Shown here: positions 30,260 to 42,476 of the stretch, in pieces | Position numbering within the stretch: the stretch's first letter is position 1 | Layout of the letters: every line of letters starts with the position of its first letter | Source of the DNA: a virus | IMG/VR virus record: IMGVR_UViG_3300049811_000333 | Span: 1 to 64,000 of that record | DNA: 64,000 nt | Strand: one strand, 5' to 3' | Translations under genes and position numbers: made by a program | The notes under the pieces: generated by a model | Database searches by the model: none | What the model was told of the DNA's origin: nothing | What the model saw: only the letters and a program-made list of their open reading frames with translations

Positions 30260-32861
30260 GCGTTTCCTTTCGGCTTGGAGGTTACGGTGAGGACCGTGTC
30301 GAAGGTGGGAACGAGGACTTGGTCGATGAACTTCTTATGCACCTCGCGCTGCATCTCGATGGAGGCCTCCTTGAAAAGGAACTGGATGACGAGATTGAGG
30401 GCGACGGCCAGGGATGTCATGGCCCCAAGTCCATTGGGCGCTAGCGTCATGGCCATGTCGGCAAGAGAGGCCCCGACAGGCAGCGCCTCCTTGGAGGAGG
30501 ACTCAAGGCCCGCAAGTTCCTCCGGCGTGAAATCGAACTCCGTCATGTGATGTCTCCGTAGTTTTTCTTGATTTCATAGCCGAGGCTCCATGAGAGCCGG
30601 TTGGCGTAGGCCTCCGCGGAAGCGAGGGCTTGCGCGAGGCCGTAATCGTCTTCCGGGTCAGACCACGAGAAGACCTGGTCATGTTGTTCGTGGTCTTCGA
30701 GCCCGTCCGGGCTCGCGACATAGACGCAGACGCACTCGCCGACCTTGTCGATGTCGATGTGGATGGTTGCGGTCATTCTTCCTCCCTGTCGACCCACACC
30801 CAGGCGAGGACGTAGGCGCCATTGTCCGAGGGCGAGATCGTTGGCAGGTCATCAATCTCGATGACCCCGTCATCGTTGAATTGCTGGTAGGCCTTCTCGC
30901 GGAAGGCATAGCCCTCCGGCGAGGACATATCCCTGGTGAGGTCCCAGATGATCTTGAGGGCCGGATGATCCTCAGGCAGGTCCTGCACGATGGTGCGCAC
31001 CACGTCGGCGCTGAGGCCGTAGGTGCCAACGGCCGGGATAATGGGCTTCACTTGATTTCCTCCACCTCGTCGAGAGGGTAGATGGTCTCGTCGTATTCGC
31101 GCACGCCTTCGCGTTCCCACTTGCCCTCGTATTTGTAGTCGCGAGCAATGTTGCGGGCTTGTGCGGCGTCGTCGGCCTCAACCTCTGTCGTGTATTCGAC
31201 GTAGGCGTCCTTGAGGCACATCACGCGGAACTTTTTCATTCCCATTCCTCCTCATCTGGGGGTGCTGCGAGCCCGAGAATTTCCTGGGCGCGTGCCTTGT
31301 CGACCTCGAAGGTGACGTGCAGGAGATAGCCTCGCCCGAGGAATTTTTTCTGGCGCTGGACGTGGACGATCTCGATCTCCTTGCCGGTTGCCCAGTCCAC
31401 GAGGTCTTTCGTGTCCTCGAAGGTCCACCAGAGCTTGCCCTTCATGACGCCGCACCCACGGTGAGGGTGTGGCCATCAACGCCGATGGCGACGGTGAAGT
31501 CGGGGGACCCGTCCGGTCCGGCGGCATAGACGGATGCTTCATCCGGCGTCTTCCAGTCCTGGTCTTCGAGCGCGGGCCCGTCCAGGTCATGTTCTGTCGA
31601 GGTGCCGTCCATCCAGAGCAGATGGAGCACGCCATAACACACGTAGTAGCTCCGGACATCGTTCCAGGTCTTGCCCTCTGGAAGCTCCACAGCCTCAGCG
31701 GCGCTGAAGGTGTAGACGGTCTCAACGTAGATGGTTTCCATCAGAAGGCCTCCCAGACGTAGATGCTGTTGCGGGTCCGGAAGCGCACGCGCGTCTCCGT
31801 CTCCTCCAGGATTTCTGTGATGATCGAGGTCTGCCACCAGTCTTGCGCCTGGTAGGTGCGGGCGTAGGGAGAGCCAACGGCGATCCCGTAGCCAACCTTG
31901 GGGCGGGGCCCTTGGTTCTCGGCGTCATCTCCGAACAGGAGGCGAGACATCGGTCCGCTGTCCCCGGCTCCGTCGCCTTCACGGCGTAGGCTGTATCTCA
32001 TTTTGCAATCCTCCGGGCCCTATCGACGAGGTAGTGCAGCCAAGACCGAAGGAGGTCGGTCTCGATCTCATCGGGGTTTAACTTTGCCACCATTTGAACG
32101 AACTCTGTTTCTTCGTTCACGCAGCCTCCTTGTCCCGTTTCCGAGAGGTGACCTGGTCGTATTCCGAAAGCTTGGTGCGGAGGTCCCACCATTCTTGGCC
32201 GTACTCCTGCACCACCTTGTCCTTGTCGATCCCGGACCGCTTCATGCGCGCCACCGTGATCGTGTAGTCGTGGCCGAGAAGCACGGGAACCTGACGGGCG
32301 AGGATCTCTTCGCGGAGTTGCTTCATCCGCTTTTCGAGATCCTTCGCCATCTCGTTGAGGGAGCCGAACTCGTCCGCGAGTTCGGCGATCCCGTAGTTGT
32401 CGAGGGTGTTGGTCATTCCTTCACTCCCTTCAGTTGTTCGATGTGGTCCTTGATGGCCTGCGCGTCGTAGATGCTGAACGCGGAGATGGCATCGTTGAGG
32501 CTGGTTGCTGTCCGCCACCAGACGTTACGAGCCGGGTGTCCGGGCATGAGGCCATCGGGTTCGAGGTCTTCGATCTTGACGCAGATGCTGAGGAGAAGCT
32601 CCCGAGCCCGGAGCGCCTCTTGCGCGAGGCTGATGAGCTTCTTGTATTCGGCAAGGCGTTCGTTGTTCATGGTTTTTCCTCGAAGCAAGGGCAAGTCTCA
32701 GCAAACTCACCGCGCGCATCAATCCGTTCGCGTCGGCACCATTGCCAGGTCAATGGCGTGACAACATCCCAGGTGCATTCGTAGAGGCCGTAGTCGTCCC
32801 AGCCGATGTCCGGATCGCAGAGCGTCTCCCCGACGTGAACGCAGCGAGAGCAATGCTTCAT
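30256..32861 (-). other. Run of ~10 short coupled early ORFs (e.g. 30256-30546, 31048-31245, 31236-31445, 31442-31741, 32117-32416, 32413-32670, 32667-32861)
   Basis: ATGA/TGATG overlaps and GGAG RBSs; no recognisable families. Confidence 0.6.
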
Positions 32862-33554: not shown

Positions 33555-34568
33555 TCATCGTGCGGCCTCGTCAATCTCCTCTTTCGAGAGCTTGTCGGAC
33601 GGGTAGGTCGAGTAGCCGAGCGAGGACCAGATGTGATCCTCGATCTCCTCAGCTGTGACGCCGTTCATCTCCAGGAAGTCCGCGACGTCGTCGGGACGAG
33701 AGCGAGCAAGCTCCCGGAGCCGCGCGAATTGCGATCCCGACGTGAGGGACATCGTCTCGCGATCATACGGGTCAGAAAACCGGGAGTTGTAGCTCCGAAA
33801 GGAATTGTGCCAGCCGTCATCGCCGGGCGTGCGCTCGATGATGAGCGACGAGAGGTCGGCGTTGATGACCGCATCGCGGAGCTTGAAGAGGTATTCCACG
33901 TCGAGGGTCTCGTCTCGCGAGTGCTCGTTGACGAACCCGACCGAGACGTTGGAGCACTCCGCGATGATGTCGGAATAGTTGGCGGTATCCGTGAAGATGC
34001 CGCCGTCGTCCGGCTTGTGATCCATGCCGAGAGCAAACGCGAGGCTCCGGGCGAAGGCGTCCGAGGCCGTCATGCCCCACCCTTGGTGGGTGATGATGGA
34101 CTGGGTCCTGCGCCGGTCGAAGGCGACGGCCGCCTCGATGCCTTGCAAGAGGTGTTGATTGTGCGCGGCGAAATACTTGCTACCGACGCCGCCGGTCTCC
34201 TCCTGGCGGTGGAACACGTAGAGGCCCGGAACCCCGGCAAGGATCATCTCGCGCAGCATCCAGACCCCGGCCGCGTTGTCCGCTCCGAGGCAATTGGACT
34301 CTTTCTCCTCGCGGTGCAGCTTGAGCTTGGTTCCCTTGAGGGCGATGCGTTGCTTGCCAGCGGTGATGTGAACGCTGTCGGTGTGTGCTGACCACAGGAT
34401 GCGAGGGCTGTCCCCGATCTTGAGGTAGCGGTTGCCCTGGTTGTCGCACTCAGCACCCAGTGAGGTGATGAAGCGCTTGATGAAGTCGCGCTCCGAGTTG
34501 GAGCCATGCGGCCTGCGATACAGGAGCATGGCGATGAGCGCTTCGTAGTCCGCGTGTGCGGGTTTCAT
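33555..34568 (-). CDS. M28/M20-clan zinc metallopeptidase-like protein
   Basis: SAHTDSVH, LGADN..G, EE.GG.GS, AFDRR, G.FTD, G...EH..E zinc-ligand motifs. Confidence 0.88.
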   Translation of the reverse strand: MKPAHADYEALIAMLLYRRPHGSNSERDFIKRFITSLGAECDNQGNRYLKIGDSPRILWSAHTDSVHITAGKQRIALKGTKLKLHREEKESNCLGADNAAGVWMLREMILAGVPGLYVFHRQEETGGVGSKYFAAHNQHLLQGIEAAVAFDRRRTQSIITHQGWGMTASDAFARSLAFALGMDHKPDDGGIFTDTANYSDIIAECSNVSVGFVNEHSRDETLDVEYLFKLRDAVINADLSSLIIERTPGDDGWHNSFRSYNSRFSDPYDRETMSLTSGSQFARLRELARSRPDDVADFLEMNGVTAEEIEDHIWSSLGYSTYPSDKLSKEEIDEAAR

Positions 34569-34578
34569 TGTGTCCTTT

Positions 34579-36312
34579 CTAGGCCGCGAGGGCCCTGGCT
34601 AGATCTTCTTTTCGGATCTCATCGGAGAACCGAGAGCGTTCCCATGCGTTCGTGGTGTAGGCGGCAACGATCAAGAGGTCGTGCCAGCTTTTGGAAGGCG
34701 AGAGGTCGCCGTGCAGTCCGGACCAGGCGTCTGCTTCAGACGTGGCAAGGGCTGGCTCTTTCGCGATGTCCGCCTTGTCGTAATACTTGCCGTCGATCTC
34801 GATCCCGTCCTCGCGGAAGGCGAACTCGGACCACGTCTCGCCGTTCTCCATCTCGTAGCTAGGCACGGAGTCATCGACTCTCGCGTCGAGGCGGTCGCAG
34901 TAGTAGGTGTCGCTTTCGATGTGCCACGTTGCCCACATGACCTCCTCGTATCCGCGAGTGCGGGTGCGCGTTCTGACGAGAACCGCGCCCGCCACGTTGT
35001 CGGCGACGTATTCGTCGGACCTGTGGCACCAAGTCGCATGGTCCCCACGGCAGTGGTTGCACCACGTCTCTGACTCGCGCCTGCCGACTGTGACGCAATA
35101 CATATCGTCTTCGTCGTAGCTTTCTTCGCAGCGCTCGCAGGTGCAGCGAGGTCCTGGGTCCTCGCGATTGAGGCCGTGCTGGTAGCAGGCGTCATCGCCG
35201 CTATCGGCGATCACGACCCACTCCGAGTTGACCTCGCGATAAGCCTGGGTGCCGTCGATGTAGGGCATGACGAGGCAGTCATCGTAACGCTCGTCCTCGA
35301 TCCGGCGGATTTTCGCGCCGATGAGGTCGGACCCGTCCGACTCCTCCTGAGTGTAGCCGAGGTCGCCGAGCATCTTCATAATGCGAAGACTGTCGCCGTA
35401 AACCCGGCCGATAGCCTTTTTCTCCGGCCATACGAGAGCGCGCGAGGTGATGCGGTCCTCTTTCTTGAGCCTGAGATAGGCCAGCTGGAGGTCGCTGTTG
35501 CCGTAGACGTGGACGGGGTGGACGCAAGACATATAGACGTCCCGCCTCTTGGACATGCAAGAGCTCGGACCGCGCGTGTAAACGCGCTCGATCTCTTCGG
35601 CCGTGACGGCGAAGCCGAGTTCGTATTCCGCGTAATCCCGGCCCATATCGCCGACGAGGTTGGCGATCACAGGGTCCGAAAGATGCGGGTAGAATTGCTT
35701 GAGATACCGTCCGGGGCGGAGGGTGATCTTGCGGTTGCGTTTCCCGTACTCCTCGCTCGGCGTGTAGGCCACCTTGGTGGGGTCTTGCGTCGAGATGTGC
35801 GCGAAGTGGCCGGGGATGCGGTCGAGGCTGATGTCCCACGGCACCGACGCATACTGGCGCTGGAGCCGGAGGTATTCGCGGGCTTCCCAGTCCATGCGGT
35901 CGCCAACTTCGTGGAAGTTGTTGGCGTGCTCGCGCTCGGAGAACCAGTTCGTTGCCTCGGAATACCGGAGGGCGTGGTAAATCCCGTCATAGGCGGGAGA
36001 CAGGAAGTGCTCCCGCCGCAGGAAGTAGATGGGGTTGACGCACTGGGCGCCGTAGTTGGTGTAGTGGTGCCGCGCCATCTCGCCCGGAAGGGTGAGCATG
36101 GTGTTGCAGTAGCCGAGCATCTTGAAGTGCCTGGTCAGGCCATCGAGGTCAACGTGACGCTCGATGATGTCCGCGACCCCGGAGGGCGAGGGATACCCGT
36201 CCGAGAGAGGGCGATCCCGGAGATCATCCGGGAGAGCCCGGAGCAAGAGGGCCACCCAGTACGCATTGACGGCGTCCTCGTTGGTGAGCTTGGTGTTCTG
36301 GCGGAGTTCCAT
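34579..36312 (-). CDS. 577-aa unknown protein (SCM / RALVW / RVYG / MPYID motifs) with an acidic Cys-rich C-terminus
   Basis: GAGGTG RBS before MELRQN; the longer ORF call overlaps tRNA genes. Confidence 0.8.
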   Translation of the reverse strand: MELRQNTKLTNEDAVNAYWVALLLRALPDDLRDRPLSDGYPSPSGVADIIERHVDLDGLTRHFKMLGYCNTMLTLPGEMARHHYTNYGAQCVNPIYFLRREHFLSPAYDGIYHALRYSEATNWFSEREHANNFHEVGDRMDWEAREYLRLQRQYASVPWDISLDRIPGHFAHISTQDPTKVAYTPSEEYGKRNRKITLRPGRYLKQFYPHLSDPVIANLVGDMGRDYAEYELGFAVTAEEIERVYTRGPSSCMSKRRDVYMSCVHPVHVYGNSDLQLAYLRLKKEDRITSRALVWPEKKAIGRVYGDSLRIMKMLGDLGYTQEESDGSDLIGAKIRRIEDERYDDCLVMPYIDGTQAYREVNSEWVVIADSGDDACYQHGLNREDPGPRCTCERCEESYDEDDMYCVTVGRRESETWCNHCRGDHATWCHRSDEYVADNVAGAVLVRTRTRTRGYEEVMWATWHIESDTYYCDRLDARVDDSVPSYEMENGETWSEFAFREDGIEIDGKYYDKADIAKEPALATSEADAWSGLHGDLSPSKSWHDLLIVAAYTTNAWERSRFSDEIRKEDLARALAA

Positions 36313-36365
36313 ATTCACCTCGTGGTTGCGTGAGAGTATTCCCTGTGTATACACACAAGGCATGA

Positions 36366-36443
36366 TGGCGCCCCTACGAGGGATCGAACCTCGATTTCGC
36401 AGCCGAGCGGCTTCGCGTCCTAGTCCAGTTAGACGATAGGGGC
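36366..36443 (-). tRNA. Atypical tRNA-Glu-like, 8-nt anticodon loop CCGCUCGG
   Basis: Acceptor GCCCCUA/UAGGGGC, D stem GUCU/GGAC, T arm CGAGG-UUCGAUC-CCUCG, G73, encoded CCA. Confidence 0.85.
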
Positions 36444-36450
36444 AGTGAGT

Positions 36451-36528
36451 TGGCCTCGCTTGCGGGAGTCGAACCACGCATTTCGCAGCCGAGAGGCAGC
36501 GCGTCCTATGCCATTAGACGAAAGCGAG
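36451..36528 (-). tRNA. Atypical tRNA-Glu-like, 8-nt loop CCUCUCGG, bulged T stem
   Basis: Acceptor CUCGCUU/AAGCGAG, D stem GUCU/GGAC, GCGUGG-UUCGACU-CCCGC, GCCA. Confidence 0.85.
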
Positions 36529-36535
36529 GAAGGGA

Positions 36536-36787
36536 TTAGAAGTAGAAGTCAGCGGCGAGGCCATTCCCTTGCCAGACTTCCACACGAAACGGCATCGAGG
36601 TGCGCAGGGTGCGCGTGTCTTGATCCTCAAAGGCGAAGTCTGCGAGCTTCGCAGGAGAGCCGCCGTAGTACGCGATGATCGTGGTGTAGTCGCGCGCACA
36701 GCCATCGAACTGGAACGTAAAGTCCTTGAACGAGAGGAAGCCGAGGCGCAGGTCGCCGTACTTCTCAAGCAATTCGTCGCGCGTCAT
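36536..36787 (-). CDS. Hypothetical protein between the tRNA-like genes
   Basis: GGAGG RBS, MTRDELLEKYGD..F..FTF. Confidence 0.65.
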   Translation of the reverse strand: MTRDELLEKYGDLRLGFLSFKDFTFQFDGCARDYTTIIAYYGGSPAKLADFAFEDQDTRTLRTSMPFRVEVWQGNGLAADFYF

Positions 36788-36805
36788 GCGATCCTCCGAG
36801 AGAGT

Positions 36806-36881
36806 TGGCGCCCCTGGCGGGAGTCGAACCGCGCCTTTCACAGCCGAGAAGCCGTATGTCCTGCCACTAGACGACAGGGGC
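36806..36881 (-). tRNA. Atypical tRNA-Glu-like, 8-nt loop CUUCUCGG, bulged T stem
   Basis: Acceptor GCCCCUG/CAGGGGC, D stem GUCU/GGAC, GCGCGG-UUCGACU-CCCGC, GCCA. Confidence 0.85.
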
Positions 36882-38508: not shown

Positions 38509-39680
38509 GACGCGGAACCGGATGGAACACGCGGTCGCCGGGGATGTAGGCGGGGGTGGGGGCGAGGCGCCAGAACTTGATGCGCCAGCGTCCGATGGCG
38601 AGAGTGTGAAGCCCGCCGATGCGAGTGTGCTTAAACATAGCTAAGCCTCCGCAAGAGGCGCACACCCTACGTGTGCGCCCGTCGCGAGGGCCGCGCTGTG
38701 GTGGTTTGCCAAGAGACGCGCCGTCCGGTCGTGCACCTAAGCACCGATCACCCCTGCCTCCCAAAGTCAGACGGGCAGGCCGTCGCGGGACTTACCGCCT
38801 TGGCAAATTGTTTTTCGCGAGGGCTTCCGGGGTTTGGACCCCCGGAGCCGCCCGGATCACGCGAGAGAGGAACCGGCGAGCATGGCCTTGGATTGGAGGT
38901 CGATACCCCGGACGAGGCTGTCGTATTCCTCCCGCGAGATGAGGCCGTCCATGTACCGCTCATCGAGGCGGTCCATCTGGCGTTCAACCCAGAGTTCGAC
39001 GAGGTGTTCGCGCATGGCAATAACTCCCGAAAGGTGAGCGCGAGAGGCGCCCACGTCGCGAGAGTCGGTCAGGTCGCGAGAGTTGGCCCCCTCCGGGGTC
39101 TCAATCCGGAGGGGCGCGAGATCAGAGTTGTCGCGAGGCGATGTAGTCCGCCGTCTCCAGGTTAAGGCTCTGGATCAGGCTGGGGTCGCCATCGTCGGGG
39201 GAAAATTCGAGGTCAATCAGCTTGGCGAGGTCGTCCCCATGGATGCGCTGGGCATACATGAAGGTCTCGGCCGATTTGTAGTCGGCGAACTCCTGGAAGT
39301 CGCCCGTGATCCCCCGAGGGGTGACATGGACGACCGAGACATGGTAAGGCATGGGTGTGCTCCACATGATGCGCGCCCGTAGTGGGCGCGCACGACGTGA
39401 GGCGCACGCGCGCGTAGTGGGACCCGAGGCGCCGAGGTGCCGCCGGGAAAATTCGGATTTGTCGATTTTCAGAACCCGGAAGTTCCGGGCACCGATCACT
39501 TTTCCGTGATGATGCGGCGCACAAAACGTCCACGGACTATTGTGCGGCGCACACTCCGGGCACGGATCACTTTCTCGTGATGCTGCGATGCACGCTCCGA
39601 ACCCGGATCACATTCCCGTGATCCGTGAACGCAACATTGTGCAACGCAATCTCGCGGTTGCGTTGTACGATGCAGCGCAC

Positions 39681-39711
39681 AAAAAAAAACGGGCGGCCCG
39701 AAAGCCGCCCG
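39681..39711 (-). terminator. Rho-independent terminator
   Basis: CGGGCGGC..GCCGCCCG hairpin plus a T run on the minus strand. Confidence 0.85.
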
Positions 39712-39731
39712 CCCGATACTCCCGGCCCGGA

Positions 39732-39992
39732 TTAAATCCCGGCCACGTAAATCGGGCACCGTTTCCCGATGCCCCGATGGTAGGCCACGGCCACGTCCAA
39801 CCCGTGGTGAACGTCCGGATAGGGTATGGCCGGACCCTGCCCAATGGCCACGGTCAGGCATCGGGCCGACTGCCCGCGCATTAGTCGGTCATGCGCCTCC
39901 GCCTTCATGGCGGCCCGCCGCGCATAAAAGTCCCGGGCAACGGCCCGGATAGCGGCCATACGTTCCTGCTTCTGTTCCGGTGTCATGGTCAA
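39732..39992 (-). CDS. Hypothetical early protein
   Basis: Coupled to the upstream ORF; ends before a terminator. Confidence 0.55.
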   Translation of the reverse strand: MTMTPEQKQERMAAIRAVARDFYARRAAMKAEAHDRLMRGQSARCLTVAIGQGPAIPYPDVHHGLDVAVAYHRGIGKRCPIYVAGI

Positions 39993-40687
39993 AGATCCTC
40001 CAATGCCAAAATCCCGGCCGATAGGTCGGTTTTGATTTCGTTCGCCTTCAATCGCAACGTGCCGATTGTCTTTGGCCTGACCGATTGCTTAACCGGACGC
40101 GGTCCGGCCGCCTTCCGGGCGGCTTCAATCTTCGCCCGGGTCTCGGCCTTAAGTCCGGCCTTCCGGATACGTTCGATTGCCCGCGCTTCCTGGCGTCCGG
40201 CCAATGCCGCCGCCCGGAACAGCTTGCGCCGCGCCTTGGCTATCGCCTTGGCGGCGGCTTTCGCCTTCCGGCCATGGACGATCCGGACCGGGGTAACGGT
40301 CCGGGTAAAAACATTCAACGTGTCGGCGGCCCGATAGGCCTTGCCGACAAACCCGTCCGTAATCTGATCTTTCTTGATTGGTTTCGGCCGGGACGGTCTC
40401 TTAACTATGACCCGCCCGCCCTCAATCCGGACCGGCTCCCGGTTCACTAACCGGCCATCCGCGTTCACATAGCATCCACCGTGAACATTACCTTCACGGC
40501 CCGTTTGCGGGTTCACGCCACCGGACGCGGCGTGCCGCGTCATGTGCCGGACTTCCCACGGGATGCCGTTTTGATTGGTTGCGGTTCGCACCTCCTGGAC
40601 CGTTTCCCGGAACAGTTGGCTGTTATGCCATCCCGTTACGGTCCCGGCCCTCCGGTTGCGCCGCGCTTGCCTGTTGTGGCTCGCCAT
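39989..40687 (-). CDS. Highly basic early protein
   Basis: AAAGGGA RBS; K/R/A-rich, 232 aa. Confidence 0.65.
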   Translation of the reverse strand: MASHNRQARRNRRAGTVTGWHNSQLFRETVQEVRTATNQNGIPWEVRHMTRHAASGGVNPQTGREGNVHGGCYVNADGRLVNREPVRIEGGRVIVKRPSRPKPIKKDQITDGFVGKAYRAADTLNVFTRTVTPVRIVHGRKAKAAAKAIAKARRKLFRAAALAGRQEARAIERIRKAGLKAETRAKIEAARKAAGPRPVKQSVRPKTIGTLRLKANEIKTDLSAGILALEDL

Positions 40688-40976
40688 TGCGTTCCCTTTC
40701 CTGGGTTTATCGGCTGACCCGGTGCTAGCCCGGATCGGTCCGCCGCCGCCCATGACCGGGCGACAAAATGAATAGTACGCTTTCCGTTGATACCGCTCTA
40801 ATCACGTGAAATCACGAACTCGTGATGTTGTTTTCGTTTGGTTTTTCGCCGTTTGAACCGTGTTCGCCCCATATCCGTGTGCGTCCTTGTGATCGCTTTC
40901 CTTGATAAATGCACGTCTTGCACTTGCAACAAATACCTGGGCACCTGTCAATCCTTACACTGACGATTGACCTAGC

Positions 40977-41000
40977 AAAAAGCCCGGGCGAACCGGGCTT
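40977..41000 (-). terminator. Rho-independent terminator
   Basis: AAGCCCGG-TTCGC-CCGGGCTT followed by TTT. Confidence 0.75.
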
Positions 41001-41005
41001 GATGC

Positions 41006-41311
41006 CTATGGCAATGGCGGCGGTGGGGCTTCATTCCATGTGTTGCCCCGGGCAACGGCCATGTTCCACCGCCAGGATACCCGGGCTTGCTCCCGTTCCC
41101 GGCCCGTGGCCGTGGCCATCCACCGCCGGGCATCGCCCGCTTGATCCAGTGCCCGGGCATACTGTGAACGGGCCGCAATCTTCAACGCTGCGCTAATGCC
41201 ATCGGCATCGCTGAACAGCGCCAGCACTTCCGGCCGCCCGGAATTTATCATCCGCATACGTTCACGGTCTCGGATCGTATCGGCCGCCGACTTCATGTTA
41301 TATCGTAACAT
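41006..41311 (-). CDS. Hypothetical early protein
   Basis: AGGAGG RBS, MLRYNMKS; followed by a terminator. Confidence 0.6.
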   Translation of the reverse strand: MLRYNMKSAADTIRDRERMRMINSGRPEVLALFSDADGISAALKIAARSQYARALDQAGDARRWMATATGREREQARVSWRWNMAVARGNTWNEAPPPPLP

Positions 41312-42476
41312 TGCTTTGCCTCCTGTGATTTGCTGCACCCTGTATATACGCCTCTTTATACCCGCCTTCAATCCCGTACAGAATTACCGCCCAAAATAGC
41401 CGCCCGGTGTCATCCTACCCGGGATAGCTGCGCCGGCCCTAATCCAATCCCCCCGGCCACGTCCAACCCCTATCCAGTCGCCCACGGCCCGGAACCCGGA
41501 ACAGACTCCCGCCCTATGGGATGCAATAGGGAATGGTCAGGATACGGACGAACCCGCCCCAACTGCCTATCATCCGTGTGCCTCGGAATTGTGTAACAGT
41601 TGTGGGGGGATTGTTCGCCGACCCTCTATCCCCCGCCCCACAAAGCAAACGCCTCCCGCTTCCGCTCCCCTCTCTCGCCGCCCTAGTCCGGGTTCGCGAC
41701 TATCGCCGGACGGGCGCCAACCCGGTCCGGCCCTCTCTATTGTTTATTTTTTTTGTCTGATTTGTTTGGCTCGGATCGGTCTCAATCCCTGACTGTCACC
41801 TATCCCCATGGTCCGGACTTGCTACCTGGTATCATCCGTGTGCTCCGGACGTACCATGCCCATCCGCCTACATGATTGTCTGATGTCTGATTATTCTTTT
41901 ACTTGTCAATAGCTTAGTTCTACTGTGAACCCTGACTTATGTCTGTTCTGTGAACTCTGATTACTTCAATCTATTGAAATCGTTGGGGATTATTATTCTC
42001 TGTTCACATCTGGATCACAGAAACGTGATCGTGTTCATGGTTTGTTCGCGTGACGCATACGGAAATTCAGGGTGCGGACGGCATCAGTGCCACCCCCACA
42101 ACACAATCCTCATAAGAGCACTTGCACTTGCAACAGGAGTGTCCGGGCTTGTTGCCATTCGTCGGGCATGAGGATGCTATATCCGACGTTTGGTATCATA
42201 CCCCCTACCCTTTTTTCTCAGGGATGGGTCCCTCTTTTACGGGTTCTTCCTTTTCACGAGCCCGCTGCCTCGCGGCTCGACAGCTGCTGCACATGCAGGG
42301 ACCTGAGTCAGGGAGCTCAGACGAGTAGTGGCCCATTAGGGGTGTCCTTTTTCTGGTGGGATGGGTCCCCCGGTAGGGGCCTGTTAGGGACCCATCGGGA
42401 AATTCTATCAGTGTACCCCGGTATATCAATTGGACGGTCCGGGTCCCCCTCCCCATGTATACCCCAGGAGGTACCC

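Follow-up and report, generated by a model that had tools for sequence, protein, structure and literature searches.

Phage tRNA-Glu paralogues with eight-nucleotide anticodon loops are linked to a GNAT-like protein and a zinc peptidase: possible donors for tRNA-dependent glutamate transfer

Why would a phage keep three extra tRNA genes, each with an abnormal anticodon arm, directly in front of two protein-coding genes that recur as a pair in many other phages? The question is raised by a locus in the first 64 kb of the 80.6-kb IMG/VR virus record IMGVR_UViG_3300049811_000333 (G+C content about 61%; this 64-kb stretch is hereafter the window), which derives from a temperate phage that encodes an integrase, a repressor, a RecET-like pair, and a DnaB-like helicase. 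On the minus strand, three tRNA-Glu paralogues (t1, t2, and t3, in this order) are followed by an open reading frame (ORF) for a 577-amino-acid (aa) protein and by another for a 337-aa peptidase, with 54 nucleotides (nt) between the nearest tRNA and the two ORFs (Table 1). The original prediction, made from the sequence of this stretch, had described three divergent tRNA-Glu paralogues that lie directly upstream of and co-oriented with these two genes and that combine abnormal anticodon arms with the body features of tRNA-Glu, G73, CUC in the loop, and an encoded CCA end. This description was borne out in full, with two of the tRNAs called by ARAGORN, all three recovered by a covariance model (R1), and all three found to have 8-nt anticodon loops. 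The comparisons below support the tRNAs, the family of the 577-aa protein, and the peptidase as a recurrent genetic module, and they suggest, tentatively, that the tRNAs may act outside translation.

Each of the three RNAs, as read from the sequence, has a 7-base-pair (bp) acceptor stem of its own sequence, together with U8, G73, and an encoded CCA. The D stem is G10-U11-C12-U13/G22-G23-A24-C25, the variable loop has 4 nt, and the strands of the anticodon stem are separated by 8 nt, which read CUUCUCGG, CCUCUCGG, and CCGCUCGG in t1, t2, and t3, respectively. The 5' strand of the T stem contains one extra nucleotide in t1 and t2 and is regular in t3. ARAGORN reports t1 and t3 as 'tRNA-??? (ct)' and misses the middle copy. 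A local search with the Rfam tRNA model matched t1 alone (39.6 bits), and a search of the whole window at the Rfam gathering threshold returned no match. Model R1, which was built in this analysis from 30 RNAs of the class described below, scores the three tRNAs at 75.8–85.1 bits.

A pattern scan combined with our own parsing recovered true cloverleaves of this 8-nt-loop class in about 22 viral contigs, and the remaining pattern matches were chance matches inside coding sequence. The loops of the class read CC[U/C/G]CUC[A/G/C]G and rarely start with CU. In an alignment of 30 phage and bacterial RNAs, the cloverleaf is 93% paired and 16 of the 21 pairs have double-sided changes, including all seven acceptor pairs and all five anticodon-stem pairs; the T stem covaries too. 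None of 500 shuffles attained the observed covariation values, and slid registers did not come close either. Because of this pairing, these double changes, and the failure of the shuffles to match them, chance is not a suitable explanation, and the aligned sequences indicate that the odd tRNAs are real and under selection.

The alignment also separates what these RNAs have kept from what varies. Invariant in 30/30 sequences are the D stem (with U11:A24 and U13:G22), the CUC, the C that opens the loop, and the G that ends it; the variable loop is AAAN in nearly all. In Escherichia coli, the major identity elements of glutamyl-tRNA synthetase (GluRS) are U11-A24, U13-G22:A46, and a lack of residue 47, plus the loop bases U35, C36, and A37 (PMC9976931). 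Judged by this set, the elements in the tRNA body plus U35 and C36 are all kept in the odd class. The base 3' of CUC is A in 20, G in nine, and C in one of the 30 RNAs, and the three window copies all have G. On the 5' side of CUC, the base is U in 15, C in 12, and G in three of the 30, so no equivalent of U33 is conserved. The pattern of canonical elongators (a 7-nt loop, U33, and no Watson-Crick pair between positions 32 and 38) is not found in this class. Moreover, one extra nucleotide bulges from the 5' strand of the T stem, which in canonical elongators is a regular 5-bp stem contacted by EF-Tu, in about nine of the 30 copies, with compensatory changes around the bulge. A second possible pair within the loop can form in just 30% of the sequences, so the anticodon arm consists either of an 8-nt loop on a 5-bp stem or of a 6-nt loop on a 6-bp stem with a closing C:G, with no long hairpin; a 7-bp anticodon stem capped by a tetraloop was dropped for the same reason.

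Further variation is found in individual copies. A tRNA 750 nt downstream of a peptidase gene (L306:6091-6207) has a self-complementary insert of about 40 nt in its D loop and an 8-nt anticodon loop, CCGCUCCG. This gene and another at positions 30859-31088 of G013 are tRNA-Glu-like genes of 101–117 nt. In addition, the phage G016 (L015/L277) has two 8-nt-loop copies as well as a tRNA-Glu(CUC) at 66579-66654 with the 7-nt loop UCCUCAC, in which position 33 is C.

The cellular copies of the class are chromosomal. About 22 Armatimonadota assemblies have one with the loop CUUCUCGG and a T-stem bulge, located beside the genes for pyruvate kinase and RNase G. Planctomycetota carry an 8-nt-loop tRNA-Glu beside ClpP, and single assemblies of Desulfotomaculaceae and Parcubacteria also have such a gene. 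Across L187, L216, and about 25 other chromosomal loci, the loop is CUUCUCGG or CUUCUCAG and the surroundings are housekeeping genes. Capsulimonadaceae genomes also hold ordinary tRNA-Glu(CUC) and tRNA-Glu(UUC), so the odd gene is a third, extra paralogue there; the family of the 577-aa protein is absent from the Capsulimonadaceae genomes checked. Among cultured phages, Bradyrhizobium phage BDU-MI-1 (L251, KY940711.1 112500-121342) has an 8-nt-loop tRNA-Glu that is annotated as 'tRNA-Glu-TTC', and a BLAST search of this tRNA against cultured phages found mainly ordinary T4-like tRNA-Glu. As far as our literature searches reach, the class is undescribed.

The larger of the two linked proteins has no family match in Pfam, PHROG, NCBIfam, or PADLOC. 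Its core (residues ~140-440) belongs to a very large phage family, with 2932 representative clusters at E ≤ 1e-3. Residues C252, M253, R291, Y305, and D353 are invariant among 141 sequences, and the alignment places the CxxC pairs after the core; one alignment of the family (A1) was too divergent for pattern extraction. A profile search of PDB sequences with the family found no match, and a Pfam scan of 21 family members produced zinc-finger noise only. For the Cys-rich region, both structural and Pfam searches gave weak LIM and zinc-finger matches. A lead from the ESM Atlas (0.80) pointing to PcfJ was not borne out by Pfam.

The AlphaFold model of this protein has a mean confidence (predicted local distance difference test, pLDDT) of 86 overall and 94.7 for the core. 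Foldseek found no match in the PDB at E ≤ 1e-3. The non-significant top rows for the core are ATE1, aminoacyl-phosphatidylglycerol synthase domains of MprF, GNAT acetyltransferases, and leucyl/phenylalanyl-tRNA-protein (L/F) transferase (E 0.14–0.8, probability ≤ 0.57). In VIA-align, the best 50 entries are all of the GNAT fold and align to residues 228-326 with Z scores of 5.0–7.2, or up to 7.3 on a second look. These alignments cover 75–93 residues with a root-mean-square deviation of about 3 Å, and of the GNAT core (a mixed β sheet ordered β1-α1-α2-β2-4-α3) the match extends only as far as α3. The invariant GRxYGD motif is located at the β4-α3 junction, where GNATs carry Q/RxxGxG/A, and its last position is not G/A. 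From these models we conclude that the core of the 577-aa protein has a GNAT-like fold, which by itself does not tell the acyl donor. A transferase fold, which the original prediction proposed to look for with AlphaFold and Foldseek, was thus found in part: the core appears GNAT-like, whereas the transferases at the top of the Foldseek results are non-significant and acyl-CoA-dependent GNATs fit at least as well.

The match of the 337-aa protein to Pfam PF04389 is marginal (22.0 bits against a gathering cut-off of 21.3), several homologues carry PF04389, and the match to PHROG 4191 ('peptidase') has an E value of 9e-76. The ligand and catalytic set HxD...D...EE...H is invariant in 26 sequences, and these residues align to the M42 TET1 and peptidase T structures in weak profile matches (E 0.008–0.012). 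On this sequence evidence, the protein is a predicted clan-MH zinc peptidase. It is encoded in at least 596 viral contigs.

In 20/20 loci examined, KP34-like phages among them, the family gene is directly followed by the peptidase gene on the same strand, and the stop and start codons often touch or overlap. Apart from the two partners, no neighbor is conserved among these loci, and a single-protein locus search returned no match. A GluRS gene linked to the pair was looked for and found in 0 of 52 records and 0 of 80 loci. Cultured phages with the pair include BDU-MI-1, Rhizobium phage Pasto, in which it adjoins ArdA, and Drulisvirus, in which its counterparts are gp10 and gp11 ('putative peptidase'), two core genes of KP34. 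Duplication of the family gene is seen in some cases, and a prophage of Mesorhizobium sp. STM 4661 has the whole pair twice. Four loci (L169, L170, L174, and L176) have a short (~280-375 aa) and a long (~510-540 aa) family paralogue in tandem upstream of a single peptidase gene, and some peptidases in these phages are extended C-terminally by 100–230 aa.

The odd tRNAs are linked to this pair. Among the roughly 22 viral records with such a tRNA, 15–16 encode the family of the 577-aa protein (seven that were already in the protein-derived locus set and 8–9 of the 15 others). The peptidase is encoded in 19 of the 24 records tested, including every complete record that has a true cloverleaf; those without it are either fragments or records in which the match does not form a clean cloverleaf. 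The tRNA is mostly on the same strand as the pair, at a distance below 2.5 kb in 13/16 cases. The spacing is 54 nt in the window, about 55–170 nt in G004, G007, and G011, about 1 kb in six records (G008, G010, G017, G018, G020, and G022), and 1.4 kb in G009; distances of 2.3–4.3 kb are found in G005, G016, and G023, of 8–9 kb in G006 and BDU-MI-1, and of 19 kb in G021. Many tRNA-Glu(CUC) paralogues linked to the pair, including all three in the window, have the 8-nt loop with its invariant C...CUC...G.

Counts taken from the protein side agree with a preference for Glu. Glu-type genes make up 10 of the 24 tRNA genes within 6 kb of 80 family genes, and within 10 kb of 80 peptidase genes the tRNAs are eight of Glu type versus four others. 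On the family tree, parsimony changes put the tRNA-linked members in up to seven places, at least two of which are forced by well-supported branches; this tree is poorly resolved, and the tRNA-linked label reflects only the DNA examined around each member. The co-occurrence anticipated for homologues of the 577-aa protein therefore extends to the peptidase throughout and to the 8-nt-loop tRNA-Glu in a subset, with most pair-bearing phages lacking it. A general absence of such RNAs from homologous gene pairs had been named in advance as evidence against a connection: most phages with the pair indeed have no such tRNA, yet the majority of records with an odd tRNA encode the family. Taken together, these results support the tRNAs, the 577-aa family protein, and the peptidase as a recurrent genetic module, in which the pair is widespread in phages and, in some of the larger ones, has additional tRNA-Glu(CUC) paralogues physically linked to it.

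What could such a module do? Non-ribosomal use of Glu-tRNA is the best single reading, because the GluRS-type body is strictly kept, the hallmarks of a decoder are lost (no U33 equivalent is conserved, the loop invariably begins with C and ends with G, T-stem bulges are seen in some copies, and one has a D-loop insert), and the linkage to a GNAT-like enzyme is specific. The odd tRNAs would then be non-decoding Glu donors for a tRNA-dependent transferase, with the peptidase trimming or reversing the product. The original prediction and the staphylococcal tRNA-Gly/Fem system share this logic. Host GluRS would still charge them with Glu, as suggested by the invariance of the D-arm/variable-loop identity set and of U35-C36. 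The remodelled loop, maybe with a 6-bp stem closed by C:G, a 6-nt loop, and no conserved U33, would keep them off the ribosome, as may the bulged T stem in about a third of the copies. Charging combined with exclusion from the ribosome would yield a private pool of Glu-tRNA. GNAT-fold transferases such as Fem, L/F-transferase, ATE1, and MprF use aminoacyl-tRNA, and the GNAT-like protein may likewise take Glu-tRNA as its acyl donor and add Glu to a protein, a peptide, or a small acceptor early in infection. The co-translated peptidase might prepare the end of the acceptor, or it might trim the residue or take it off once added. Phages that have the pair and no odd tRNA would draw on host Glu-tRNA.

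Several observations weigh against this reading. None of the fold matches is more than modest (Z ≤ 7.3, Foldseek E ≥ 0.14), the second VIA-align look favored acetyl-CoA enzymes (Z up to 7.3) over MprF (5.3), and the RxYGD motif is at the place where GNATs bind the CoA pyrophosphate. On such structural grounds, acyl-CoA would be an equally good donor. A loop of 8 nt is not in itself a bar to triplet decoding, given that yeast mitochondrial tRNA-Thr1 reads triplets through an anticodon loop of this size (PMC3113583). The relation between the tRNAs and the pair is not obligate in either direction, which argues against a strict three-part system: the odd tRNA is present at only about 4–7 of 80 loci with the pair, and it occurs without the pair in Armatimonadota, Planctomycetota, and one 224-kb jumbo phage. 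Also, several pair-linked tRNA-Glu copies have ordinary 7-nt loops. Finally, an RtcB RNA ligase is encoded near the tRNAs and the pair in four lineages (BDU-MI-1, G006, G009, and G016), which would fit a conflict over tRNA damage better; in BDU-MI-1, RtcB and a 'GTP pyrophosphokinase' (small alarmone synthetase-like) gene are located ~1.7-3.6 kb downstream of the tRNA, and the pair is about 9 kb away. Because acyl-CoA is an equally good donor structurally, and because charging, evasion of EF-Tu, and transfer are proposals, we hold the donor reading only tentatively.

The RtcB genes lead to the main rival explanation, which we regard as possible but doubtful. The odd tRNAs may be spare tRNA-Glu(CUC) decoders that escape a host tRNA-targeting defence, in which case the pair would be a separate early takeover or anti-defence module that happens to share the early region or acts against the same tRNA-directed system. 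For phage tRNAs with changes in the anticodon loop, evasion of anticodon nucleases has been proposed (PMC10264068), and the proximity of the pair to RtcB in these four lineages and to ArdA in phage Pasto is consistent with this explanation. Furthermore, GAG is the main Glu codon of the window phage (767 GAG versus 372 GAA in the phage genes), the odd copies are accompanied by ordinary 7-nt tRNA-Glu(CUC), and the yeast example demonstrates that a natural 8-nt-loop tRNA can decode triplets. However, the missing U33 equivalent, the invariant closing C:G, the T-stem bulges, and the D-loop insert all disfavor efficient decoding. No bacterial defence nuclease specific for tRNA-Glu was found in the literature searched, and sharing an early region leaves unexplained why the linked tRNAs are almost exclusively of Glu type.

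The structural matches bear more directly on a different idea, in which the GNAT-like protein depends on acyl-CoA and acts on tRNA-Glu or Glu-tRNA, either by N-acylation of the aminoacyl group or by base modification, with the zinc hydrolase as deacylase and with the odd tRNAs as either preferred or protected substrates. The toxins TacT and AtaT N-acylate the aminoacyl group of aminoacyl-tRNA, and N-acyl-amino-acid deacylases are found in clan MH. The best structural matches are to classical CoA-dependent GNATs, RxYGD occupies the β4-α3 junction, and the genetic linkage of the tRNAs to the pair would be accounted for. Nevertheless, the CoA motif is matched in part only, the alignment is limited to the first two thirds of the GNAT fold, and an invariant Cys252 would be unusual for a CoA-dependent GNAT; we consider this explanation rather unlikely.

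The alternative given in the original prediction was that the RNAs are decoys, i.e., non-functional mimics that titrate a host protein recognizing tRNA-Glu (such as a nuclease, GluRS, or some other factor) and are not consumed in doing so. The several divergent copies found per genome, all with the conserved GluRS-type body and CUC, would suit this role. A decoy, however, should copy the loop of its target, and the loop of this class differs systematically from the 7-nt loop of the host. The conservation of the class beside housekeeping genes in the chromosomes of a whole bacterial phylum is a further difficulty, and we judge a decoy function unlikely. Finally, quadruplet (+1 frameshift) decoding of GAGN, for which the 8-nt loop and a variable base exactly 5' of CUC could be cited (anticodons UCUC, UCUC, and GCUC in the window, a set that could cover GAGA/G and GAGC/U, and CCUC elsewhere), is very improbable because the phage uses GAG heavily and general frameshifting at these abundant codons would be harmful, and also because U33 is kept in 3/30 RNAs under this reading, no gene needing a +1 shift was seen (no search aimed at one was made), and the linkage to the enzyme pair is left unexplained. 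The codon counts also led us to drop a scheme of host shut-off through GAG frameshifting by a phage that avoids GAG.

Known systems offer partial parallels to glutamate donation by the odd tRNAs. One is the tRNA-Gly/FemXAB system of Staphylococcus, in which extra tRNA paralogues also keep synthetase identity and appear ill-suited to the ribosome, and in which a GNAT-fold enzyme could likewise take the aminoacyl group. The differences are that the amino acid is Glu rather than Gly, that the system is phage-borne, and that the change is in the anticodon loop (8 nt), sometimes with a T-stem bulge, whereas staphylococcal tRNA-Gly is altered in T-stem base pairs; moreover, the 577-aa protein and Fem show no similarity in sequence, and dependence of the former on tRNA is putative. 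The N-degron aminoacyl-tRNA protein transferases L/F-transferase, Bpt, and ATE1 share the GNAT-like catalytic fold, as does MprF, and ATE1 also has a Cys-rich metal-binding region. However, these enzymes have neither a zinc-peptidase partner nor a tRNA of their own, and their matches to the 577-aa protein are the non-significant ones given above. Glu-tRNA-Glu is also used outside translation by LanB/thiopeptide dehydratases and glutamyl-tRNA reductase, some of which select particular tRNA-Glu sequences, but their folds and contexts are unrelated and no such gene is near the module.

Among tRNAs, yeast mitochondrial tRNA-Thr1(UAG) is a natural case of an 8-nt anticodon loop (PMC3113583). It decodes triplets and drives codon reassignment, in contrast to the odd tRNA-Glu class, which has no conserved U33 and in which the loop ends can pair. 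The nuclease-evading tRNAs of T5-type phages (PMC10264068) are likewise phage paralogues that differ from those of the host in the anticodon loop, and RtcB is nearby in some of the lineages studied here. Those tRNAs have base substitutions in the 7-nt loops of Lys, Tyr, and other tRNAs, whereas the change here is an insertion, is limited to Glu, and comes with tight linkage to one enzyme pair. For the pair, the known counterpart is gp10/gp11 of KP34 ('hypothetical protein' and 'putative peptidase' of Drulisvirus), which is homologous and has the same gene order, although KP34-type podophages, unlike the window phage, carry no tRNA.

Table 1. Coordinates of the tRNA genes, the two main ORFs, and their parts within the 64-kb window.
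Feature	Coordinates	Strand	Characteristics and evidence
t1, tRNA-Glu paralogue	36806..36881	-	Loop CUUCUCGG, bulged T stem, G73, CCA; ARAGORN, Rfam tRNA 39.6 bits, model R1 75.8 bits
83-aa ORF between t1 and t2	36536..36787	-	No family match; not conserved in related loci
t2, tRNA-Glu paralogue	36451..36528	-	Loop CCUCUCGG, C1:G72, bulged T stem; model R1 85.1 bits; missed by ARAGORN
t3, tRNA-Glu paralogue	36366..36443	-	Loop CCGCUCGG, regular 5-bp T stem; ARAGORN, model R1 81.1 bits
577-aa protein, large uncharacterized phage family (KP34 gp10-like)	34579..36312	-	N-terminal helical region, conserved core, Cys-rich zinc-ribbon-like repeats, C-terminal helix
Conserved core of 577-aa protein, residues 140-385	35158..35895	-	Motifs GPxSCM, HPxxVY, GRxYGD, PYxD; alignments A1 to A3
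GNAT-like segment of 577-aa protein, residues 228-326 (β1 to α3)	35335..35631	-	Core model and VIA-align
Cys-rich region of 577-aa protein, residues 386-515	34768..35157	-	CxxC pairs C392/C395 and C418/C421, plus C472; alignment
337-aa predicted clan-MH zinc peptidase (M28/M42-like; PHROG 4191)	33555..34568	-	H62, D64, D97, E123, E124, and H216 invariant

The locus is located within a long leftward gene block, with the integrase gene (~25 kb) on one side and the terminase and portal genes (~46-49 kb) on the other. Given its lack of a family match and of conservation in related loci, the 83-aa ORF between t1 and t2 is doubtful as a member of the module. The public gene call for the 577-aa protein is 594 aa long and starts 17 codons further upstream, right behind the CCA end of t3; the ATG at 36312, which follows a GAGGTG, looks to be the better start. 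Scans for sigma-70 promoters and terminators found no signal exceeding that of shuffles, and a megablast search of the region against cultured phages returned no match. The tRNAs are complete, covarying cloverleaves located 11 kb from the integrase gene, and their interpretation as an attP remnant was dropped.

A separate feature of the window is a zone at 39434-42116, where the plus strand has no GAG over 2682 nt (about 51 expected from the density in the window). No other trinucleotide has a gap of nearly this size, and the gaps of AGA and AGG in this zone are also long. The plus strand is pyrimidine-rich there (GC skew -0.15, AT skew -0.21), and for about 1.5 kb of its length there is no convincing gene. 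No comparable zone is present in related loci, and a connection between it and the tRNAs was therefore dropped.

A broader form of the donor reading, to which we give still less credence than to the donor role itself, is that phages and, separately, some bacterial phyla keep a dedicated non-decoding tRNA-Glu, which in phages may feed a very widespread, unrecognized family of tRNA-dependent glutamyl transferases (KP34 gp10-like, combining a GNAT-like core and zinc ribbons) with a partner aminopeptidase, such that host or phage proteins would be remodelled early in infection. If true, this would amount to a new system of post-translational writing that is served by a private tRNA. Of the early phage modules that lack an explanation, the pair is one of the more common (at least 596 viral contigs for the peptidase and about 2900 clusters for its partner) and belongs to the core gene set of the KP34-like Klebsiella phages used in therapy work, and its linkage to an oddly built tRNA-Glu is the first concrete, testable handle on its role. 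Cultured systems for experiments are available in phage BDU-MI-1 on Bradyrhizobium diazoefficiens USDA110 and in the prophage of Mesorhizobium sp. STM 4661. The odd tRNA class itself bears on how cells and viruses divert aminoacyl-tRNA from the ribosome.

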